Shown: piece by piece, positions 40,904-58,667 of the stretch
How the letters are laid out: every line of letters starts with the position of its first letter
How positions within the stretch are numbered: the first letter of the stretch is position 1
DNA from: a virus
Taxonomy: Duplodnaviria; Caudoviricetes
Virus record (IMG/VR): IMGVR_UViG_3300020187_001966
Length of the DNA stretch: 64,000 nt
Reading direction: 5' to 3' (one strand)
Notes under the pieces: model-generated
The model's database searches: none
What the model was told of the DNA's origin: nothing
The model's input: only the letters and a program-made list of their open reading frames with translations
Program-made: the position numbers and the translations under genes

Positions 40904-40934
40904 GTAGTAAATCACTGAAATCCATGTTAAATAT

Positions 40935-41020
40935 AAGTGTGAACACAAAATAGTGTTTACACTTTTTTTATGAAATGACACCCTGAAAAGACGGGGGGTA
41001 TTGCTTTCCTCAAGCATTTT
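40935..41020 (+). ncRNA. Structured leader / candidate sRNA of micro-protein operon
   Basis: 12-bp hairpin + U-run, GC hairpin, and TGCTT-TCCTC-AAGCA hairpin with anti-SD-like loop. Confidence 0.35.
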
Positions 41021-41044
41021 AAAACTTAATCAAGGAAAAACAAA

Positions 41045-41224
41045 ATGTTTAACGACACATTCAACGGTCTTGTAAGTTTACTTGGAAATCCACTTCCAAC
41101 ACGGAAGTTCGAAAAAGAGATGCTTACATACGCAAAAACAGAATACGGAAAAGATTGGCAGTTTGCTTATCAATATATGCTAGATCATTCAGGTTCAGCA
41201 CCTAACATGGGAGTACATCTCTAA
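41045..41224 (+). CDS. Small protein (59 aa), first gene of coupled operon
   Basis: Hand-translated MFNDTFNG...YAKTEYGKDWQFAYQYML...; AAGGA RBS; TAATG coupling to next gene. Confidence 0.75.
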   Translation: MFNDTFNGLVSLLGNPLPTRKFEKEMLTYAKTEYGKDWQFAYQYMLDHSGSAPNMGVHL

Positions 41225-41481
41225 TGGCACATTATGTAATAGAAGCGTCAAGTTGGATTCAAGATGCAATCGAAGGATTCAATGACTTACGTAGAGCAAT
41301 GAAACTACGTGCAGAACGTAAAGCATCATACAAACAAACTTATAAAGAACTTAGCAAGTTAAACGACTATGAACTAAACGACATCGGCATTTGCCGTGGC
41401 GACATTAGAAACATTGCACGTGGTGATAGAACAATCAAACGTGGTATCGAAGTTAACGAAAACTTGAGAGGATCTATATAA
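41224..41481 (+). CDS. DUF1127 (YjiS-like) small protein
   Basis: TYKELSKLNDYELNDIGICRGDI. Confidence 0.88.
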   Translation: MAHYVIEASSWIQDAIEGFNDLRRAMKLRAERKASYKQTYKELSKLNDYELNDIGICRGDIRNIARGDRTIKRGIEVNENLRGSI

Positions 41482-41678
41482 TGACTGTAGCAACAATGAA
41501 ATCAAACACATGGGGAATTACATGTAAAACATGTGCCATTCTTTCAAAAGCAATTGTAGCAACTGGAATGTTTTTATGGGCATTTGGTGAGTCAGCTGGA
41601 AGAGCAAGAGCAGCAAGTGAATTATACCGTCAAGGGTATGTAGAAGAAGCAAGAAGATTAATGACGGAGAATAATTAA
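41481..41678 (+). CDS. Small protein
   Basis: Coupled; [20 protein letters not shown]. Confidence 0.7.
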
Positions 41679-41899
41679 TGACTGGTGATATAGCAACGTT
41701 TGGCGCAATGATTGGCGCAGGGTTAGCAACAATTGGAATGGGCGGAGCAGCCATTGGTGTTGGAATGATTGTAGGTAGTGTACTTAAAGTAATGCCTAAG
41801 AAAAGTGACACAGGCACAATGTTTGTTGGTGTAGCATTTGCGGAAGCATTAGGAATATTTGCATTCTTAGTAGCACTGCTATTAATGTTTGCTGTCTAA
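41678..41899 (+). CDS. atpE: ATP synthase subunit c-like protein with divergent polar loop
   Basis: [18 protein letters not shown] and [25 protein letters not shown]; RNP/RQP loop absent. Confidence 0.85.
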
Positions 41900-42120
41900 T
41901 GGTAGGTGATCAGCACATTGAAATATCAGCACAGGTAGTGCAGAAGTTAGGTTTCTATATGTTTGTAATTATGACTTCACTTATGGTAATATGTATAGCT
42001 TTTGGTTTCTATGCTGTTATTCAAAAATTTAACGAACCAAACTGGAAAGAAGTATGTATCGCAAAAGGCGGTGTGCCAGTACAATTAGAAAAGTCTTACT
42101 TCGACTGCAAAAAGATGTAA
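41899..42120 (+). CDS. Small membrane protein
   Basis: One TM, C-x14-C pair (CIAKGG...FDC). Confidence 0.65.
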   Translation: MVGDQHIEISAQVVQKLGFYMFVIMTSLMVICIAFGFYAVIQKFNEPNWKEVCIAKGGVPVQLEKSYFDCKKM

Positions 42121-42136
42121 CAAAGAGGAATATAAT

Positions 42137-42271
42137 ATGTTTACAAGATTTATGAAACTAATGGAATACAGAAGTTACTGTATGAGTATCAAGCAACTAC
42201 GAGACATGGGTATGAATGATAAAGCCAATGAAATCTCAGAGTTTAAACATAACATGTATAAAACAAGTTAA
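42137..42271 (+). CDS. Small protein (44 aa)
   Basis: Hand-translated MFTRFMKLMEYRSYCMSIKQLRDMG...; GAGGA RBS. Confidence 0.6.
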   Translation: MFTRFMKLMEYRSYCMSIKQLRDMGMNDKANEISEFKHNMYKTS

Positions 42272-42333
42272 TGTTAGATCCAGATCACACATACACAAAG
42301 CCAAAAGGCGAGAAGAAAAAAGGCGGTAAGTAA
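42271..42333 (+). CDS. Micro-ORF (20 aa, basic)
   Basis: TAATG-coupled MLDPDHTYTKPKGEKKKGGK before terminator. Confidence 0.4.
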   Translation: MLDPDHTYTKPKGEKKKGGK

Positions 42334-42351
42334 GCCGCAGTACAACAGAGT

Positions 42352-42375
42352 AAAGCACCACAAGGTGCTTTTTTC
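42352..42375 (+). terminator. Rho-independent terminator
   Basis: AAAGCACC-ACAA-GGTGCTTT + T-run. Confidence 0.75.
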
Positions 42376-42426
42376 TTGACTAATTAACTATCAGTGCTAT
42401 AAATATAGTTAACACACGGAGGCTAT

Positions 42427-42645
42427 ATGCAACATTCTATTGAGGATCTTCTAAGAAGACTTGAAGTAATGAAAGACAAAGCTATTCTGTTACATCGAGT
42501 TCGTAATGAGTTTAGTGAAATATCATATAAAGATTATGACAAAGCAGCTTGTCAAAATATTATAGATGATATACAAGCAATGGCATTGGGCATTGCGAAT
42601 GATAAAGAAGGTACTGATATTATTACTGAGATGGAATATAAATGA
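42427..42645 (+). CDS. Hypothetical protein
   Basis: GGAGG RBS, late promoter upstream. Confidence 0.7.
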   Translation: MQHSIEDLLRRLEVMKDKAILLHRVRNEFSEISYKDYDKAACQNIIDDIQAMALGIANDKEGTDIITEMEYK

Positions 42646-43196
42646 ACTTATCAGGTGATTTTTTAATCAGCATTCCAGCTGTAAATACTGGAACATTTAA
42701 TCGCAGTGTTGTTCTTATGAATAAGCACACTGGCGATGGAGCGTCTGGTTGGATAGTTAATAAACAATTAGATGATAAAATAACACAACGTTTACGCAAA
42801 GGTATGAATCTTACTCGTGACATACCATTATACTTTGGTGGTCCAGTAGACGTAAACAATGCTGTTGTTATACACAGTAATGATTTAAAATTACCTAGTA
42901 CAAGAAAACTTAATGATACACTAAGCATCACAAAAGACAAGAGTATTGTCAACGTAATGAACATTGGACAATTTCCTGAATACTGGAGAGTAATTGTTGG
43001 TAGAAGTTCATGGGGAGCAGGACAACTAGAAAGCGAAATACTTGGCAGCCGTACAAATGGCATTGGTACTTGGATGTCAATAGACTATACTGATCAGTTA
43101 ATGTGGCAAACAATGCCAAGTAATCAGTGGGAACGCAGTATTGAACTAAGTGCCACACAATTGACTAATAATATTTTAAAAATACCAAATATGTAA
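42642..43196 (+). CDS. YqgE/AlgH (DUF179) family protein
   Basis: F.RSVVL, G..GWIVNK, LYFGGPV, GRSSWGAGQLESEI. Confidence 0.88.
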   Translation: MNLSGDFLISIPAVNTGTFNRSVVLMNKHTGDGASGWIVNKQLDDKITQRLRKGMNLTRDIPLYFGGPVDVNNAVVIHSNDLKLPSTRKLNDTLSITKDKSIVNVMNIGQFPEYWRVIVGRSSWGAGQLESEILGSRTNGIGTWMSIDYTDQLMWQTMPSNQWERSIELSATQLTNNILKIPNM

Positions 43197-44611: not shown

Positions 44612-44712
44612 CTTTTTTTCCTTTTCTGAAATTCAGCCTAAAAAAAATTAGCTCAAAAAAATTTGAGTGTGTTTTTTCTATCCAGTCTATTTAGTCTTTT
44701 CTATAATAAGGC

Positions 44713-44743
44713 TTGACATCCTCTTGTGTTTAGTATATAAATA
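44713..44743 (+). promoter_or_regulatory. Composite sigma70 / late promoter of tmRNA
   Basis: TTGACA-N17-TATAAA overlapping TATAAATA. Confidence 0.7.
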
Positions 44744-44747
44744 GACT

Positions 44748-45090
44748 GTAACGTTGAAGTGATTTGACGACTATACTGGACCCGGGGGCGGTACCCGGCG
44801 ACTCCACCATAAACACATTAGGTTTGAAATATAACCTCTCTTTCCCGAGATGATAACTCGATATAGAGGACCTAGAAATAGGGTAAAGAATAAGAGTGCT
44901 AGTGTGTTTTTGATGGGGTCGAAATAGGATCGACAGGTAGGATAGATGAGTGGAGTTACCGGGATATAAGCGCCGTTACCGCGAATAAACTTTCTAAATG
45001 CAAACGCAAATAGAGCGCCAGAAATGGCTTTAGCTGCCTAATTAGGTAAGTGGGGGTTTGTAACGCACCTAGCAACAGAAGCGTTACACT
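44748..45090 (+). ncRNA. ssrA: Two-piece (circularly permuted) tmRNA, tag ANANRAPEMALAA
   Basis: Acceptor piece ends CCGGGGGCGGTACCCGGCGACTCCACCA (44809); coding piece starts GGGGTCGAAATAGGATCGAC (44915); G3-U70 pair; tag 45000-45041. Confidence 0.92.
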
Positions 45091-45144: not shown

Positions 45145-46224
45145 ATGAAATTATTAAAACTATTTTCCGCAACATTATTAATGTTGGGGTCTTTAGCTGT
45201 GTCAGCACAAGCAGATGCACCTAAGGATAACATCACGGTCGGATTTATTTACGTCGGACCAACTGGTGACCACGGATGGACATACCGTCACGATATTGGT
45301 CGTCAGCAAGTAGAAGAAGCATACGGCGACAGAGTAACAACACGATTTGTTGAAAGTGTAGCAGAAGGTGCTGACGCTGAACGTGTAATGACACAAATGG
45401 CACTACAGGGCGCAGACATTATTTTTGCGACATCATTTGGATATATGGATCCAATAATGAACGTAGCAAAGAAGTTTCCAAACGTAAAGTTTGAACATGC
45501 TACAGGTTATAAATCATCTGACAACGTTGCTAACTATGGTTTGAAACTATACCAAGCAAGACACGTACAAGGTGTTGTAGCAGGTATGATGACAAAAACA
45601 AACAAAATTTGTTATATTGCTTCATTCCCAATTCCAGAAGTTATGCGTGAGATTAACACGTTCTTCTTGGGTGCACGTAAGTACAATCCAGATGTAGAAC
45701 TATCAATTGCGTGGGTTTACACATGGTATGATCCAGGTAAAGAAAAAGATGCGGCAACAGCATTGATTGACCAAGGTTGTGACATTGTAGCACAGCATAC
45801 TGACTCACCTGCTCCACTACAATCAGCAGAACAAGCAGGCGTACTTGGATTTGGACAAGCAAGTGATCAAATGAAGTTTGCTCCTAACGCACAATTGACA
45901 GCAACTATTGACAATTGGGGTCCTTACTATATTAAGAAAGTAGGACAAGTACTAGACGGTACATGGGAAACAGGCGATTACTTTGGACACATGAACGAAG
46001 ACGCTGTACAAATGGCACCGTTTGCTAACATGCCAGCTGACGTACAAGCAGAAGCACAGCGTGTAAAAGATGCTATTAGCGCAGGTGAGTTATTTGGATT
46101 TACAGGTCCAATTAACAAGCAAGACGGAACAGTGTTCCTGAAAGAAGGCGAAGTAGCAACTAGACAGCAACTAGACACTATGATGTTCTATGTCGAAGGC
46201 ATTACATCAAAGGTACCTGGTTAA
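45145..46224 (+). CDS. BMP-family ABC substrate-binding protein (purine nucleoside type)
   Basis: Signal peptide, GFIYVGP.GDHGWTY.HD.GR, IFATSFGY, WYDP.KE..AA..LID.G. Confidence 0.93.
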   Translation: MKLLKLFSATLLMLGSLAVSAQADAPKDNITVGFIYVGPTGDHGWTYRHDIGRQQVEEAYGDRVTTRFVESVAEGADAERVMTQMALQGADIIFATSFGYMDPIMNVAKKFPNVKFEHATGYKSSDNVANYGLKLYQARHVQGVVAGMMTKTNKICYIASFPIPEVMREINTFFLGARKYNPDVELSIAWVYTWYDPGKEKDAATALIDQGCDIVAQHTDSPAPLQSAEQAGVLGFGQASDQMKFAPNAQLTATIDNWGPYYIKKVGQVLDGTWETGDYFGHMNEDAVQMAPFANMPADVQAEAQRVKDAISAGELFGFTGPINKQDGTVFLKEGEVATRQQLDTMMFYVEGITSKVPG

Positions 46225-52462: not shown

Positions 52463-52530
52463 TATACTTTAGTATATCTGCCCAATTTCACCCACATTTC
52501 ACTAAATATAAGTGTGAGAGTGAGATCTAT

Positions 52531-53298
52531 ATGCAGAAAAAATTATTAAGTAGTGCCATAATGGCAATAGTGTTTACAACATTAGCATCGTTATCAGTAA
52601 TGGCTAATGAAATATATATAACACAAATTGGGGATAGTCTAGATTTAGATATCACTCAAGACGGACAAAACAACGAATTTGGAGACAGCACTACAGACGC
52701 TGGGCTCTATGGCGATAATATGGTGTTTAGTATAACACAAACTGGTGATACAAACACTATTGACGCAATTATTGCTGGTGACAGTTATACAGGTACCTGG
52801 GTGTTTACTGGAAATAGTAACAATGTTGACCTATTATGTGACAGCACAGCAACAATTGGTGGTGGCAATTGTGATAATGTAACATTAAATATTACTACAA
52901 CAGGTGATGACAACAACTATGACTTTAAGATTGGTGAAACTACTGATGGCGGTGATGCCACTGTTAACTTTACAATTGATGGTGATGACAACCTGATACA
53001 AATGGACTTGGATGGAACTGATGCTAATGTTACTGTAGAAATTGACAACAGCGCATCAACAGCAAGTGGATCAACAATTACAAGCGCAACTGATACTAAC
53101 CTAAGTACTAATTCTCCAGGTAACATTATTGATTTAAATATTGATGGTAATGGTGATACTTTAGGACACACTGTAACATTAGATATAACAGGTGGTGGTA
53201 GTGTATATACTATTACACAAAGTGGTATCTACGATAACCTAGTAGATATAACTTCAACTGGGGACGGTAACACAGTTGATATTACACAATCCGATTAA
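52531..53298 (+). CDS. Curlin-repeat-like secreted protein
   Basis: Signal peptide, NEIYITQIGD, repeated Q-x-G-x-x-N units. Confidence 0.8.
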   Translation: MQKKLLSSAIMAIVFTTLASLSVMANEIYITQIGDSLDLDITQDGQNNEFGDSTTDAGLYGDNMVFSITQTGDTNTIDAIIAGDSYTGTWVFTGNSNNVDLLCDSTATIGGGNCDNVTLNITTTGDDNNYDFKIGETTDGGDATVNFTIDGDDNLIQMDLDGTDANVTVEIDNSASTASGSTITSATDTNLSTNSPGNIIDLNIDGNGDTLGHTVTLDITGGGSVYTITQSGIYDNLVDITSTGDGNTVDITQSD

Positions 53299-54406
53299 AC
53301 TTATATGTATAATATTTGTTGCTCTAGCATACGTAAGTATAGCTAGGGCAACTCCTATTGGAGCGGTTGCTGAATCTTCTGGCACAAGTACAATTAAACG
53401 TGATAAAGAAGCATACACTGGCGAAGTAGGTCTTGGCTTACAAATGAACGATAATATTGCTACTGGTAAAGGTAAATTGCGTTTAGACTTTGTAGACGAT
53501 ACTAGAGTAGATGTTACTGAAAATAGTCGTATGACTATTGATGAGTTTATATACGATCCAGCTAGTGGAACAGGTGCTCTTAGTATGAAAGCAACACTAG
53601 GCGCAGTACGTTATGCTAGTGGACAAATAGCAAAGAATTCAAGACAACGAGTAAACATAAGAACGCCAAGTGCTAAAGTTACAGTGCGTGGTACAGACTT
53701 TATGATGATTGTAGATGAGATAGGCGGCAGTATGATAACACTATTGCCCAGTTGTGATGAAAGTGGATTATGTGTAACTGGTGAGATTAGTGTTGAGAGC
53801 GATGTGGGAATGGTTATTATGAATCAAGCATTCCAAACTACTATAGTTTCACACAGTGGTGCTGTTCCAAAGCCAGGAGTTGTACTAGACTTACCAGAAA
53901 ATATGCTTACAGCAATGTTAATTGTACGTAAAGTATCACCTTACACAGAAGAGATAATAAAACAAAAACCACCTACTGATATATTAGACATTGACTTTTT
54001 AGAGTTTGACGAACTAGACAGTGATCCATTAGTTGATGGTATTAAAAATATTTGGGTAACTGATTTAGATAACACAACTTACCTAAATTCAGAGTTTATA
54101 GATCAATTGGAAAAACAACTTGCTGAAATACTATCAAAATGGTTTGATAGTCTAGGAACACAAAATGTAGAGTTTTTTCAGGATAAGTTTTTTGGATTAG
54201 ATCCAGATACAAATATATTTTATGATGAGGAATATCCTTATTTTGTAGTAAGTCGCAAAGAAGGAGATCAACATTTCTTTCAATTAAATTTAAGCCAAAG
54301 TCACAGCTACAATGTAGACTTTGTTCAAGGAGGGTTTTATGAATACGGTTTTAAAGTGGGTGTTGGTTCCTCTAACAGTATTGTTATCAATCAAAACAAC
54401 TACTAG
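53276..54406 (+). CDS. FecR-domain protein
   Basis: Signal/TM, TGKG...F.DDT, GAVRYASG, IRTP.A...VRGTDF. Confidence 0.85.
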   Translation: MILHNPIKLICIIFVALAYVSIARATPIGAVAESSGTSTIKRDKEAYTGEVGLGLQMNDNIATGKGKLRLDFVDDTRVDVTENSRMTIDEFIYDPASGTGALSMKATLGAVRYASGQIAKNSRQRVNIRTPSAKVTVRGTDFMMIVDEIGGSMITLLPSCDESGLCVTGEISVESDVGMVIMNQAFQTTIVSHSGAVPKPGVVLDLPENMLTAMLIVRKVSPYTEEIIKQKPPTDILDIDFLEFDELDSDPLVDGIKNIWVTDLDNTTYLNSEFIDQLEKQLAEILSKWFDSLGTQNVEFFQDKFFGLDPDTNIFYDEEYPYFVVSRKEGDQHFFQLNLSQSHSYNVDFVQGGFYEYGFKVGVGSSNSIVINQNNY

Positions 54407-56624: not shown

Positions 56625-58667
56625 ATGCGTAAGATATTATTCTCTCCAATATGGAGTGTGCTTGTACTACTACTTCTTACTTGGGTGTATAGTAGTAACC
56701 CAGTATTTCTAGATAGTTTAAGGTTGAGATACTTTGACCAACTAATAGTAAATCAAGAGCCAATTGAAAATAACATATACACTGTTAACATAGACGAAGC
56801 AAGTTTAGAAGAAAAAGGACAATGGCCCTGGCCACGTGGAGACTATAGTGAGTTAATTATAGACTTATATGACCGTGGTGCTGGCTTAGTTGTGTTTAAT
56901 GTACTAATGGCTGAAACTGATCGAGCAGGAGAGGATCAAGATTTAGCATTAACAATGCAACAGTTACCAGTTATCCTAAACATGCTGGGCGCAGATGAGA
57001 ATAAAAACGAAGCAATTAATCCTGGTGCTACTATTGTTAATAGTGACTTTATGTACCTTATACCCAGCCGTGAAGGTGTTATAGCAAACGTACCAGACAT
57101 AGAATTTTCATCAGTTGGCAGTGGCATCGTAGATACATTCCCAGAAGCTGATGGTGTAACAAGACGTATGCCAATGGTTATAGAAAGCCAAGGCACACTT
57201 TATCCAAGTGTTACAATGGAAGTATTACGAGTTATTGCTGGAGATCCTAGTTTTCAGATTAAGTTAAATGAATTTGGTGTTGACAAACTACGCATACCAC
57301 AGTTTGGTATTATACAAACAGATGGACTTGGGCGTGTTTGGATTGACTGGAGTCAAAAGAATAAAAGTTATAGCACAACAAACTTACCAGACGACTTTGA
57401 TGGCGGCATAGTATTTGTTGGCCCAACAGCGGCAGGTGTTTCACAGCCAGTAGCAACAGCGGCGGGCAGTATATACCCACACGAAATACATGCCACTATA
57501 CTTGGCACAGTGTTTAACAAAAGTAATATTGAACGACCTGCTTGGGCTTTTGATGCTGAAATGTTAGGCTTCTTATTAGTAGGACTTTTTGTTATTGTAC
57601 TAGCACGTTGGACTTATGCTGGCATTATAGTATTTGTAGTCGCAGTAGGTGGTTCAATATTTTATAGCATATATAGTTTTAATAACTATAACTATTTGAT
57701 TGATGGCGCTACATCTAGTGCCTTTTTAATACTAGTGGGCATGACTAGGTATATAGTTAAATTTGTAGATGAATTCCTACAAAAACAAGAAATTAAGAAA
57801 CAGTTTGGCGGATACGCATCACCTACAGTTGTTAAACTACTACAAGAAAATCCAGCACTCATTAAAGATGGTGTAAAGAAAGAAGTTAGTATCGTGTTTA
57901 GTGACTTGCGTGGCTTTACTCCACTAGGTGAGAGTTTTGGTGACGATGTAAAAGGCCTAACTAAAATAATGAATGGCTACATGGATAGTATTACACAGCC
58001 TGTATTAGACAGTGATGGAATGATTATTAAGTATATAGGCGATGCTAGTATGCACATACACAATGCGCCTATAGATGATCGTCACCATCCAAGAACCGCA
58101 GTACAATGTGGATTAGATATGTTAGCGGCAGTGGATAAATTTAATGAAGAAGTTATTATTCCACAAGGTAGACCAGCAGTAGGCATGGGCGCAGGTATCA
58201 ATACAGGACTTGGTTATATTGGTGAGATGGGATCAACAGCTAGACACAGTTATGATGTTTTGGGAGACGCAGTAAGTACTGCCGCACGTATTGAATCAAA
58301 ATGTAAAGAGTACGGATGTTTACTACTAGTAGGCGATGCTACATACCAAACAACTAAGTCAGACTTCTTTTACTTAAAGATAGATGACTTAGCAGTTAAA
58401 GGCAAGAGTGTTGGTGTTGGTATATGGACAGTATTAGATCAGAAGCGTCCAGCTTGGCGTAAAGCACAAAAGAAACACCAAGATATGTATGAAGACTATC
58501 TGGCGCAAAGATTTGATGACGCAATAGACAAGTGTAAGATGTTACATGATCACTTTGACGGACAAATGGCTGGCTACTATGATATGTGGATTGAGCGTTG
58601 TGAATTCCAAAAGACACAAGACTTACCTAAAGATTGGAATGGCGTGTTTTTTGCCCAAACCAAGTAA
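56625..58667 (+). CDS. CHASE2-domain class III adenylate/guanylate cyclase
   Basis: GQWPWPR CHASE2 motif, three TMs, FSDLRGFT, IKYIGDA, GIGI-like GAGINTG, YDVLGDAV..AARIES. Confidence 0.93.
   Translation: MRKILFSPIWSVLVLLLLTWVYSSNPVFLDSLRLRYFDQLIVNQEPIENNIYTVNIDEASLEEKGQWPWPRGDYSELIIDLYDRGAGLVVFNVLMAETDRAGEDQDLALTMQQLPVILNMLGADENKNEAINPGATIVNSDFMYLIPSREGVIANVPDIEFSSVGSGIVDTFPEADGVTRRMPMVIESQGTLYPSVTMEVLRVIAGDPSFQIKLNEFGVDKLRIPQFGIIQTDGLGRVWIDWSQKNKSYSTTNLPDDFDGGIVFVGPTAAGVSQPVATAAGSIYPHEIHATILGTVFNKSNIERPAWAFDAEMLGFLLVGLFVIVLARWTYAGIIVFVVAVGGSIFYSIYSFNNYNYLIDGATSSAFLILVGMTRYIVKFVDEFLQKQEIKKQFGGYASPTVVKLLQENPALIKDGVKKEVSIVFSDLRGFTPLGESFGDDVKGLTKIMNGYMDSITQPVLDSDGMIIKYIGDASMHIHNAPIDDRHHPRTAVQCGLDMLAAVDKFNEEVIIPQGRPAVGMGAGINTGLGYIGEMGSTARHSYDVLGDAVSTAARIESKCKEYGCLLLVGDATYQTTKSDFFYLKIDDLAVKGKSVGVGIWTVLDQKRPAWRKAQKKHQDMYEDYLAQRFDDAIDKCKMLHDHFDGQMAGYYDMWIERCEFQKTQDLPKDWNGVFFAQTK

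Follow-up and report, generated by a model that had tools for sequence, protein, structure and literature searches.

A Phage Row of Seven Microprotein Genes with an ATP Synthase c-Subunit Variant That Lacks the R-N-P Loop

Layout of the Row

A 64,000-nucleotide (nt) stretch of virus DNA (Duplodnaviria, Caudoviricetes; IMG/VR record IMGVR_UViG_3300020187_001966), here called the window, carries between positions 41,045 and 42,375 a row of seven very short genes, o1 to o7. The fourth gene encodes a variant of the F-type ATP synthase c subunit from which the R-N-P loop is missing, and the second encodes a DUF1127 protein. An earlier note on this DNA, made from the letters alone, listed seven open reading frames (ORFs) of 59, 85, 65, 73, 73, 44 and 20 amino acids (aa), five TAATG stop/start overlaps and one terminator at the end. 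The ORFs lie exactly where they were placed, all on the plus strand, and the overlaps are seen at o1/o2, o2/o3, o3/o4, o4/o5 and o6/o7. The terminator is real, a hairpin at 42352–42371 followed by a T-run (−18.4 kcal/mol, z score −3.7). Both protein labels stand, with Pfam scores over the curated cut-offs: o2 matches DUF1127 (PF06568) at 2.3e-11 and 43.6 bits (cut-off 23.3), and o4 matches ATP-synt_C (PF00137) at 2.1e-11 and 44.4 bits (cut-off 24). The features are as follows.

o1, 41045–41224, plus strand: 59-aa soluble microprotein with the motif AKTEY..DW..AY
o2, 41224–41481, plus strand: 85-aa DUF1127 protein
o3, 41481–41678, plus strand: 65-aa phage-only protein with a hydrophobic N-terminal half and a conserved C-terminal helix
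o4, 41678–41899, plus strand: 73-aa variant of the F-type ATP synthase c subunit, lacking the R-N-P loop
o5, 41899–42120, plus strand: 73-aa membrane protein with one helix and, at the C-terminus, a small domain with a Cys pair
o6, 42137–42271, plus strand: 44-aa soluble microprotein (MEYRSYCM.I..LR..G) with its own Shine–Dalgarno site
o7, 42271–42333, plus strand: 20-aa basic peptide (M[IL]DPDHT..KPKGEKKKGGK), the last gene of the row
40927–40941, plus strand: late-type promoter box TTAAATATAA, inside the 14-mer TAAATATAAGTGTG; a consensus match
40935–40970, plus strand: intrinsic terminator at the end of the guaC unit upstream, in overlap with the promoter box; 12-base-pair (bp) stem and T-run
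40981–41022, plus strand: conserved leader, a small hairpin with a purine-rich loop followed by the block GGGTATTGCTTTCCTCAAGCAT
42352–42377, plus strand: intrinsic terminator closing the row; 8-bp GC-rich stem and T-run

The o5 and o6 genes are spaced by 16 nt, and this spacer contains an AGAGGA Shine–Dalgarno site. No obvious Shine–Dalgarno site is found for o5 or o7, which is consistent with translational coupling without being proof of it. The stoichiometric action suggested in the earlier note is plausible from the coupling. Overlaps of −1, −4 and −10/−11 nt are retained among relatives. Overlaps of 1 and 4 nt are frequent all over this compact phage, so overlap by itself is ordinary here. 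At the end of the upstream guaC unit, the hairpin at 40935–40964 has a folding energy of −15.9 kcal/mol (z score −3.1). With its genes on one strand, stop/start overlaps, a single promoter region and a single terminator, the row has the marks of an operon; that is, to judge from its sequence, the region is one compact, co-oriented transcription unit with two terminators around it.

Seven Genuine Microgenes

Scans of IMG/VR yielded 68 loci with a c-like gene and 14 further loci with a DUF1127 gene, and an independent scan anchored on o3 yielded 80 loci. Genes, order and overlap types are the same across related loci in a tblastn map and in ORF maps, and protein alignments show conserved motifs in all seven proteins, including the 20-aa peptide. 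Substitutions among relatives are mostly at third codon positions in all seven ORFs. Pairwise NG86 ratios of nonsynonymous to synonymous substitution rates (dN/dS) are, from o1 to o7, 0.40, 0.42, 0.47, 0.10, 0.18, 0.16 and 0.09. It is confirmed that the seven ORFs are genuine protein-coding microgenes.

The smallest members of the row can be followed individually. The o1 protein has 13 distinct homologues and is present in many of the o3-anchored loci; it has no match in Pfam or PHROG, and its matches in GenBank phages are at chance level. For o6, 27 distinct homologues share 18 invariant positions, and the family comprises 13 representative clusters among 1.84 billion proteins. The o7 peptide takes 9 distinct forms across 30 loci. 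A 99-aa antisense ORF (window 41518–41817, minus strand) that lies over o3 and the c gene is most likely spurious, as the substitution pattern fits the plus-strand genes.

A c Subunit without Its Coupling Loop

The c variant encoded by o4 evidently derives from the AtpE of Rhodobacterales. All 80 of its best bacterial genome matches are in Rhodobacteraceae or Paracoccaceae, at 54–65% identity, and its best solved relative is the c subunit of Paracoccus denitrificans (PDB 5DN6, with 12 c chains; 6.9e-17). The variant shares with Rhodobacterales AtpE the two-helix hairpin, the GxGxGxG pattern and the FAEALGIF helix with its Glu. Both hydrophobic helices are retained (KD19 value 2.49), the GxGxGxG stretch, G20-M-G-G-A-A-I-G-V-G, is conserved, and G15, G20 and G51 are invariant. 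The proton-binding residue E56, in helix 2, is invariant in every phage and host copy.

The loop between the helixes is another matter. Mutation of Arg41 or Gln42 in the c subunit of E. coli impairs the binding or coupling of F1. It is through the polar loop that the c-ring touches the central stalk, and this loop is conserved as ARNPS/ARQPN from bacteria to mitochondria (PMC3542316). An R[NQ]P loop is present in 80 of 80 host copies and in none of the 37 distinct phage copies or the 80 related database clusters. These clusters display at least four loop designs, in proteins of 73 to 78 aa total length, and the alignment of o4 with the P. denitrificans subunit has its gap on "alrnp". The constraint is reversed with respect to AtpE, falling on the helixes rather than the loop: cellular copies are most alike in the loop (86% identity, with 79% in the helixes), whereas phage copies are least alike there (46%, with 86% in the helixes). 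Regional dN/dS values for o4 are 0.11 for the first transmembrane helix (TM1), 0.31 for the loop and 0.03 for the second (TM2). From the loop value, it follows that the loop is rewritten and relaxed, not decaying. A spare part for the host enzyme would keep all motifs of host function; here, the coupling loop is lost.

The variant also differs from AtpE in its company. Next to the shorter or rewritten loop, it lacks the other atp genes: none for an a, b or alpha/beta subunit (PF00119, PF00430, PF00006) turned up in five viral records, one of them a 221-kb record with a completeness rating of 100%. The variant is always paired with a phage-only one-helix protein. In the tree, a single branch separates the loopless copies from the rest, also after removal of the loop columns (SH-aLRT 92), a grouping that fits one old capture. 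The GC content of the c gene is 42%, against 37% for the window, which indicates long residence in the phage.

Phage-Only Partners

The o5 gene directly follows the c gene in all 64 loci that reach past c, and it is absent wherever c is absent. It comes in two forms, one of 67–80 aa with two conserved cysteines, the other of 49–59 aa with only the N-terminus and the helix. The family has only 74 database clusters, all unnamed, and no Pfam match. An AlphaFold2 (AF2) model of o5 consists of one long helix, residues 3–44, with a predicted local distance difference test score (pLDDT) of 83–92 in the membrane part. The o5 protein is a phage-only, obligate partner of the c variant.

The o3 family is larger, with more than 2000 database clusters, none of them named and all viral where a label exists; those from the Atlas are unnamed and viral only. 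Its AF2 model has two helixes (pLDDT 71), and a Foldseek search of the PDB with this model returned nothing. Among 301 Rhodobacterales genomes, searches for host homologues of o3, o5 and o6 gave chance-level matches only, the best host match to o5 being a transmembrane stretch of an unrelated 136-aa ORF.

Several origins of these proteins were considered and rejected. One of them, a joint capture of atpE and the 5′ end of the host gene that follows it, was rejected, as o3 and o5 match the N-termini of host b or b′ with an hhalign probability of at most 4%. The likeness of o3 to o6 is too weak for paralogues (hhalign 22%), and o3 has no similarity to DUF1127.

A Composite Row

The row is a composite of two layers: an older phage cassette, made up of o1, the DUF1127 gene, o3, o6 and o7, and an inserted c/o5 pair. 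Loci L070–L077 have the order o1-o2-o3-o6-o7, with neither c nor o5. In the o3-anchored set of 80 loci, the most frequent layouts are o1-o2-o3-o6(-o7), o2-o3-o6-o7 and o1-o3-o2-o6-o7, and only about 23 of these loci contain c plus o5. The point of insertion of the pair is between o3 and o6. The o2–o3 and c–o5 adjacencies are almost universal, and cargo enters at the same points. In about 15 relatives, a gene of the plastocyanin/azurin family lies between o6 and o7, and o7 is still last.

A related arrangement exists in a cultured phage. Methylophilales phage Melnitz (Kyanoviridae, MZ577097), a T4-like marine phage of OM43, has small, overlapping genes 44–46. Gene 45 is a homologue of o3 (hhalign 98.8%) and gene 46 encodes a DUF1127 protein, although DUF1127 is not mentioned in the Melnitz paper. 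Unlike the window, Melnitz has the order o3 then DUF1127 and no match to c, o5, o6 or o7. Its gene 44 resembles o1 in position and in the TEY motif only (hhalign 3%). Given the layouts free of c and o5, the Melnitz pair and the cupredoxin insertion, it follows that the old five-microprotein cassette acts as an insertion site for host-derived membrane-energetics genes.

Two kinds of cargo deserve description. The cupredoxin is a 140–146-aa copper protein of the plastocyanin/azurin family (PF00127, 1.7e-13; e.g., L017:4070–4495), found at the same position in loci L016–L022, L026, L030, L055–L059, L062 and L069, where o7 overlaps its stop by 4 nt. In other loci, an Hsp20/alpha-crystallin gene (PF00011, 1.4e-16) abuts the DUF1127 gene (L031:3031–3522 and the related L033 and L036–L056); this lineage has a short, 49-aa form of o5 and is without o6 and o7.

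The earlier note had read the row as a host-takeover cassette that acts on membrane energetics and RNA stability and was perhaps captured from a host stress regulon. Its theme of membrane energetics holds up, given the c-subunit cargo and the cupredoxin in the same row in relatives. The compact, overlap-coupled microprotein unit with two host-like members also stands, the c subunit being nearest to Rhodobacterales AtpE and o2 resembling that order's DUF1127 class of about 70 aa. Capture from a host regulon does not: o3, o5 and o6 are missing from the Rhodobacterales genomes sampled, 30 host DUF1127 loci have no o1, o3, o5, o6 or o7 next to them, and the modular make-up of the row, with c and o5 in a minority of o3-anchored loci, argues against capture as one block. 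Loss of gene order in every relative would have refuted the note's reading; the order is in fact kept in related IMG/VR phage loci.

The DUF1127 Protein

DUF1127 homologues are found in 195 of 201 Rhodobacterales genomes, and o2 itself has 53 distinct homologues. It has the same core, L..L.D.EL.DIG..R.DI, as the small DUF1127 proteins of cells (the A. tumefaciens SDPs, R. sphaeroides CcaF1 and YjiS of E. coli and Salmonella), and its overall layout is like that of the class of about 70 aa from Rhodobacterales that starts with MAH(T). It differs from the cellular proteins in two ways: it adds a phage-specific tail of 15–30 aa, and it always adjoins the phage-only o3. The C-terminal tail, which ends in N-x-N-L-[KR]-G-x-[VI], is invariant in phages and is found in none of 40 host DUF1127 ORFs.

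In published work, cellular DUF1127 proteins contact PhoR, associate with the membrane and bind RNA. DUF1127 proteins can act through protein–protein contacts with the kinase PhoR (PMC12501420), and YjiS attaches to the inner membrane (PMC11707872). By analogy, o2 and its soluble partners most likely act by protein–protein contacts at the inner membrane.

Leader, Promoter Box and Timing

The promoter box TTAAATATAA sits 117 nt before o1. The 14-mer that contains it, TAAATATAAGTGTG, occurs twice in the window, each time upstream of a gene start; the second copy is at 52503–52516, before an ORF that begins at 52531. At the cassette, the 14-mer overlaps the terminator hairpin of the guaC unit (40927–40970), giving a compact terminator–promoter arrangement. 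Of 36 distinct relatives, 33 have the pattern [ACT]TAAATA in the 200 nt before the cassette, as against 19% of shuffles. One relative, G001, has TATAAATA boxes before the gp23 capsid gene and its neighbour, and AATAAATATAT before the cassette. The T4 late promoter is TATAAATA. The row is probably expressed late in infection. A scan for sigma-70 promoters gave sites no more numerous than in shuffles, and a reading of TATTGCTTTC as a MotA box was dropped as unsupported.

The leader at 40981–41022 could be a regulatory RNA or a protein-binding site. Its block GGGTATTGCTTTCCTCAAGCAT, a 6-bp palindrome with a UCCUC loop, is almost invariant in every locus that begins with o1. The hairpin stem exists in four variants in which the sequence differs and the pairing is kept (e.g., CCCTG/CGGGG, CTGTG/CACAG and CCGG/CCGG). 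RNAalifold on a MAFFT alignment of the leader gave little signal, and no Rfam family matched, the best being freshwater-2 at 20 bits against a threshold of 49.9.

The Phage and Its Surroundings

The window is part of a virus record of 65,270 bp with a CheckV completeness of 19%. It encodes ribonucleotide reductase, a DnaB-type helicase, GMP reductase, transfer RNAs and a two-piece transfer-messenger RNA (tmRNA) of alphaproteobacterial type. A T4 gp23-type capsid protein is encoded by the 221-kb relative with the same cassette. The helicase places the jumbo phages PA5oct and Atu_ph07 nearest among cultured phages, with an identity of about 50%. The phage is a marine, T4-like jumbo phage. GenBank phages gave no DNA match to the region and no protein match to c, o5 or o6.

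The permuted tmRNA lies at window 44688–45090 (RF01849, 127 bits; tag ANANRAPEMALAA); its type fits an alphaproteobacterial host, and it echoes the two-piece tmRNA reported for phage Melnitz. Just past the row, at 42427–43196, a 72-aa ORF has a 4-nt overlap with an AlgH-like (DUF179) gene, a pair that is kept in relative L065 at 62% and 66% identity. Unusual phage cargo elsewhere in the window includes a PnrA-like ABC substrate-binding protein (45145–46224), a FecR-domain protein (53276–54406) and a CHASE2-adenylate/guanylate cyclase protein (56625–58667).

What the c Variant May Do

We tentatively propose, with a probability of about 0.4, that the c variant enters or imitates the host c-ring and cannot grip F1, the result being a late uncoupling of Fo from F1. 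The variant keeps what would be needed to pack in a c-ring and to face subunit a, namely both helixes, the glycine zipper and the Glu. Late in infection, it would be inserted into the host membrane, where it might co-assemble with host c or form a ring of its own that engages host subunit a. Its loop would be unable to couple to the gamma/epsilon foot of F1, and therefore proton flow through Fo would be uncoupled from ATP synthesis and hydrolysis. The o5 protein may help to assemble, plug or tune the variant ring. Uncoupling is favoured because the surfaces for the ring and for subunit a are host-identical and the stalk contact is absent.

Several considerations weigh against this proposal. 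With a dN/dS of 0.31, the loop remains under purifying selection even in its rewritten form, and it has retained a Pro with basic residues close by (MPKK, MPHRS); it may thus still make some contact with F1 or have a new partner. It is not obvious what a phage in need of ATP would gain from uncoupling. The cupredoxin carried by relatives could support energy metabolism just as well as sabotage it. Finally, the promoter box is a consensus match only.

A somewhat unlikely alternative leaves F1 out altogether. The variant would form a homo-oligomeric ring in a separate phage complex, with o5 as a plug or stator-like part and the loop as a docking site for the soluble microproteins; an example would be a timed proton leak that sets a lysis clock or blocks superinfection. 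The obligate c–o5 pairing, the late-type promoter, the constant placement of cargo inside the same microprotein row, and a loop that is rewritten yet constrained and conserved within each lineage are all as such a device would have them. However, the near-identity of TM2 to host AtpE over deep phage divergence is more easily explained by contact with host c or subunit a, and no holin or endolysin gene was identified beside the c variant. A scheme that lets the loopless ring use host subunit a, with o5 as its gate or cap and the soluble microproteins docked on it, would yield a programmed late proton leak serving as a lysis or energy timer; we regard this version as unlikely. It is quite unlikely that the variant is a working auxiliary metabolic gene, comparable to the photosynthesis and electron-transport genes of cyanophages, in which a functional c would replace or supplement host c, perhaps with an altered ring size or ion-to-ATP ratio, and sustain ATP synthesis. 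Host derivation, strong purifying selection, retention of Glu56 and the glycine zipper, the Pro and basic residues of the loop, and the cupredoxin in the same row of relatives speak for a gene of this kind. Yet the R-N-P motif, universal in the host copies, is lost from every phage copy, the loop is the least conserved part, and a phage-only partner is always present; c subunits are also not known as high-turnover parts.

The host-identical helixes and the missing F1-binding surface are what would be expected of a mimic that spares F1, a decoy or shield that soaks up a defence factor, toxin or assembly factor. The proton-binding Glu is nevertheless retained in a helix with a dN/dS of 0.03, so the ion site itself seems to matter, and we know of no defence system that targets c subunits; among the explanations considered here, this one is the least probable. 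It is very improbable, too, that genome compaction has simply brought together seven unrelated small late genes that have no joint function. Overlaps are indeed common across the phage, the gene content of the row varies between relatives, and the flanking genes differ widely, but the near-universal o2–o3 and c–o5 adjacencies, the recurring o1/o2/o3-o6-o7 order and the entry of cargo at the same points are not what mere packing would give.

Comparison with Known Systems

The uncoupling proposal has partial parallels. The electron-transport auxiliary genes of marine phages, such as cyanophage plastocyanin, are likewise small, host-derived bioenergetic genes in T4-like phages. They are thought to sustain host function, whereas the c subunit described here has lost its key coupling motif. 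Alphaproteobacterial zeta and IF1 are small natural regulators of ATP synthase. Cyanobacterial AtpTheta is also a small protein that changes the behaviour of ATP synthase under particular conditions (PMC12648545). In contrast to these inhibitors, which bind the enzyme, the candidate agent in the phage is an altered structural subunit of the rotor. Full-text searches of the literature found no paper on a phage c subunit.

Significance

Few membrane proteins are as conserved as c subunits, which are tied to ATP production through the R-N-P loop. In ocean phages of a large and abundant group, selection on the parts that form the ring and bind the proton is very strong, while the tie to ATP production has been discarded. 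For a field that is short of functional examples, the row supplies conserved phage microproteins in a tractable set, among them a DUF1127 protein with a tail of its own.

If the phage owns the ring, the variant would represent a new class of host-takeover device, a neofunctionalised subunit of a rotary motor. If the variant instead enters host rings, as proposed above, it would be the first natural "poison rotor subunit". It would then provide a new route by which phages control the energy state of the host, with an effect on the processing of carbon by infected roseobacters.

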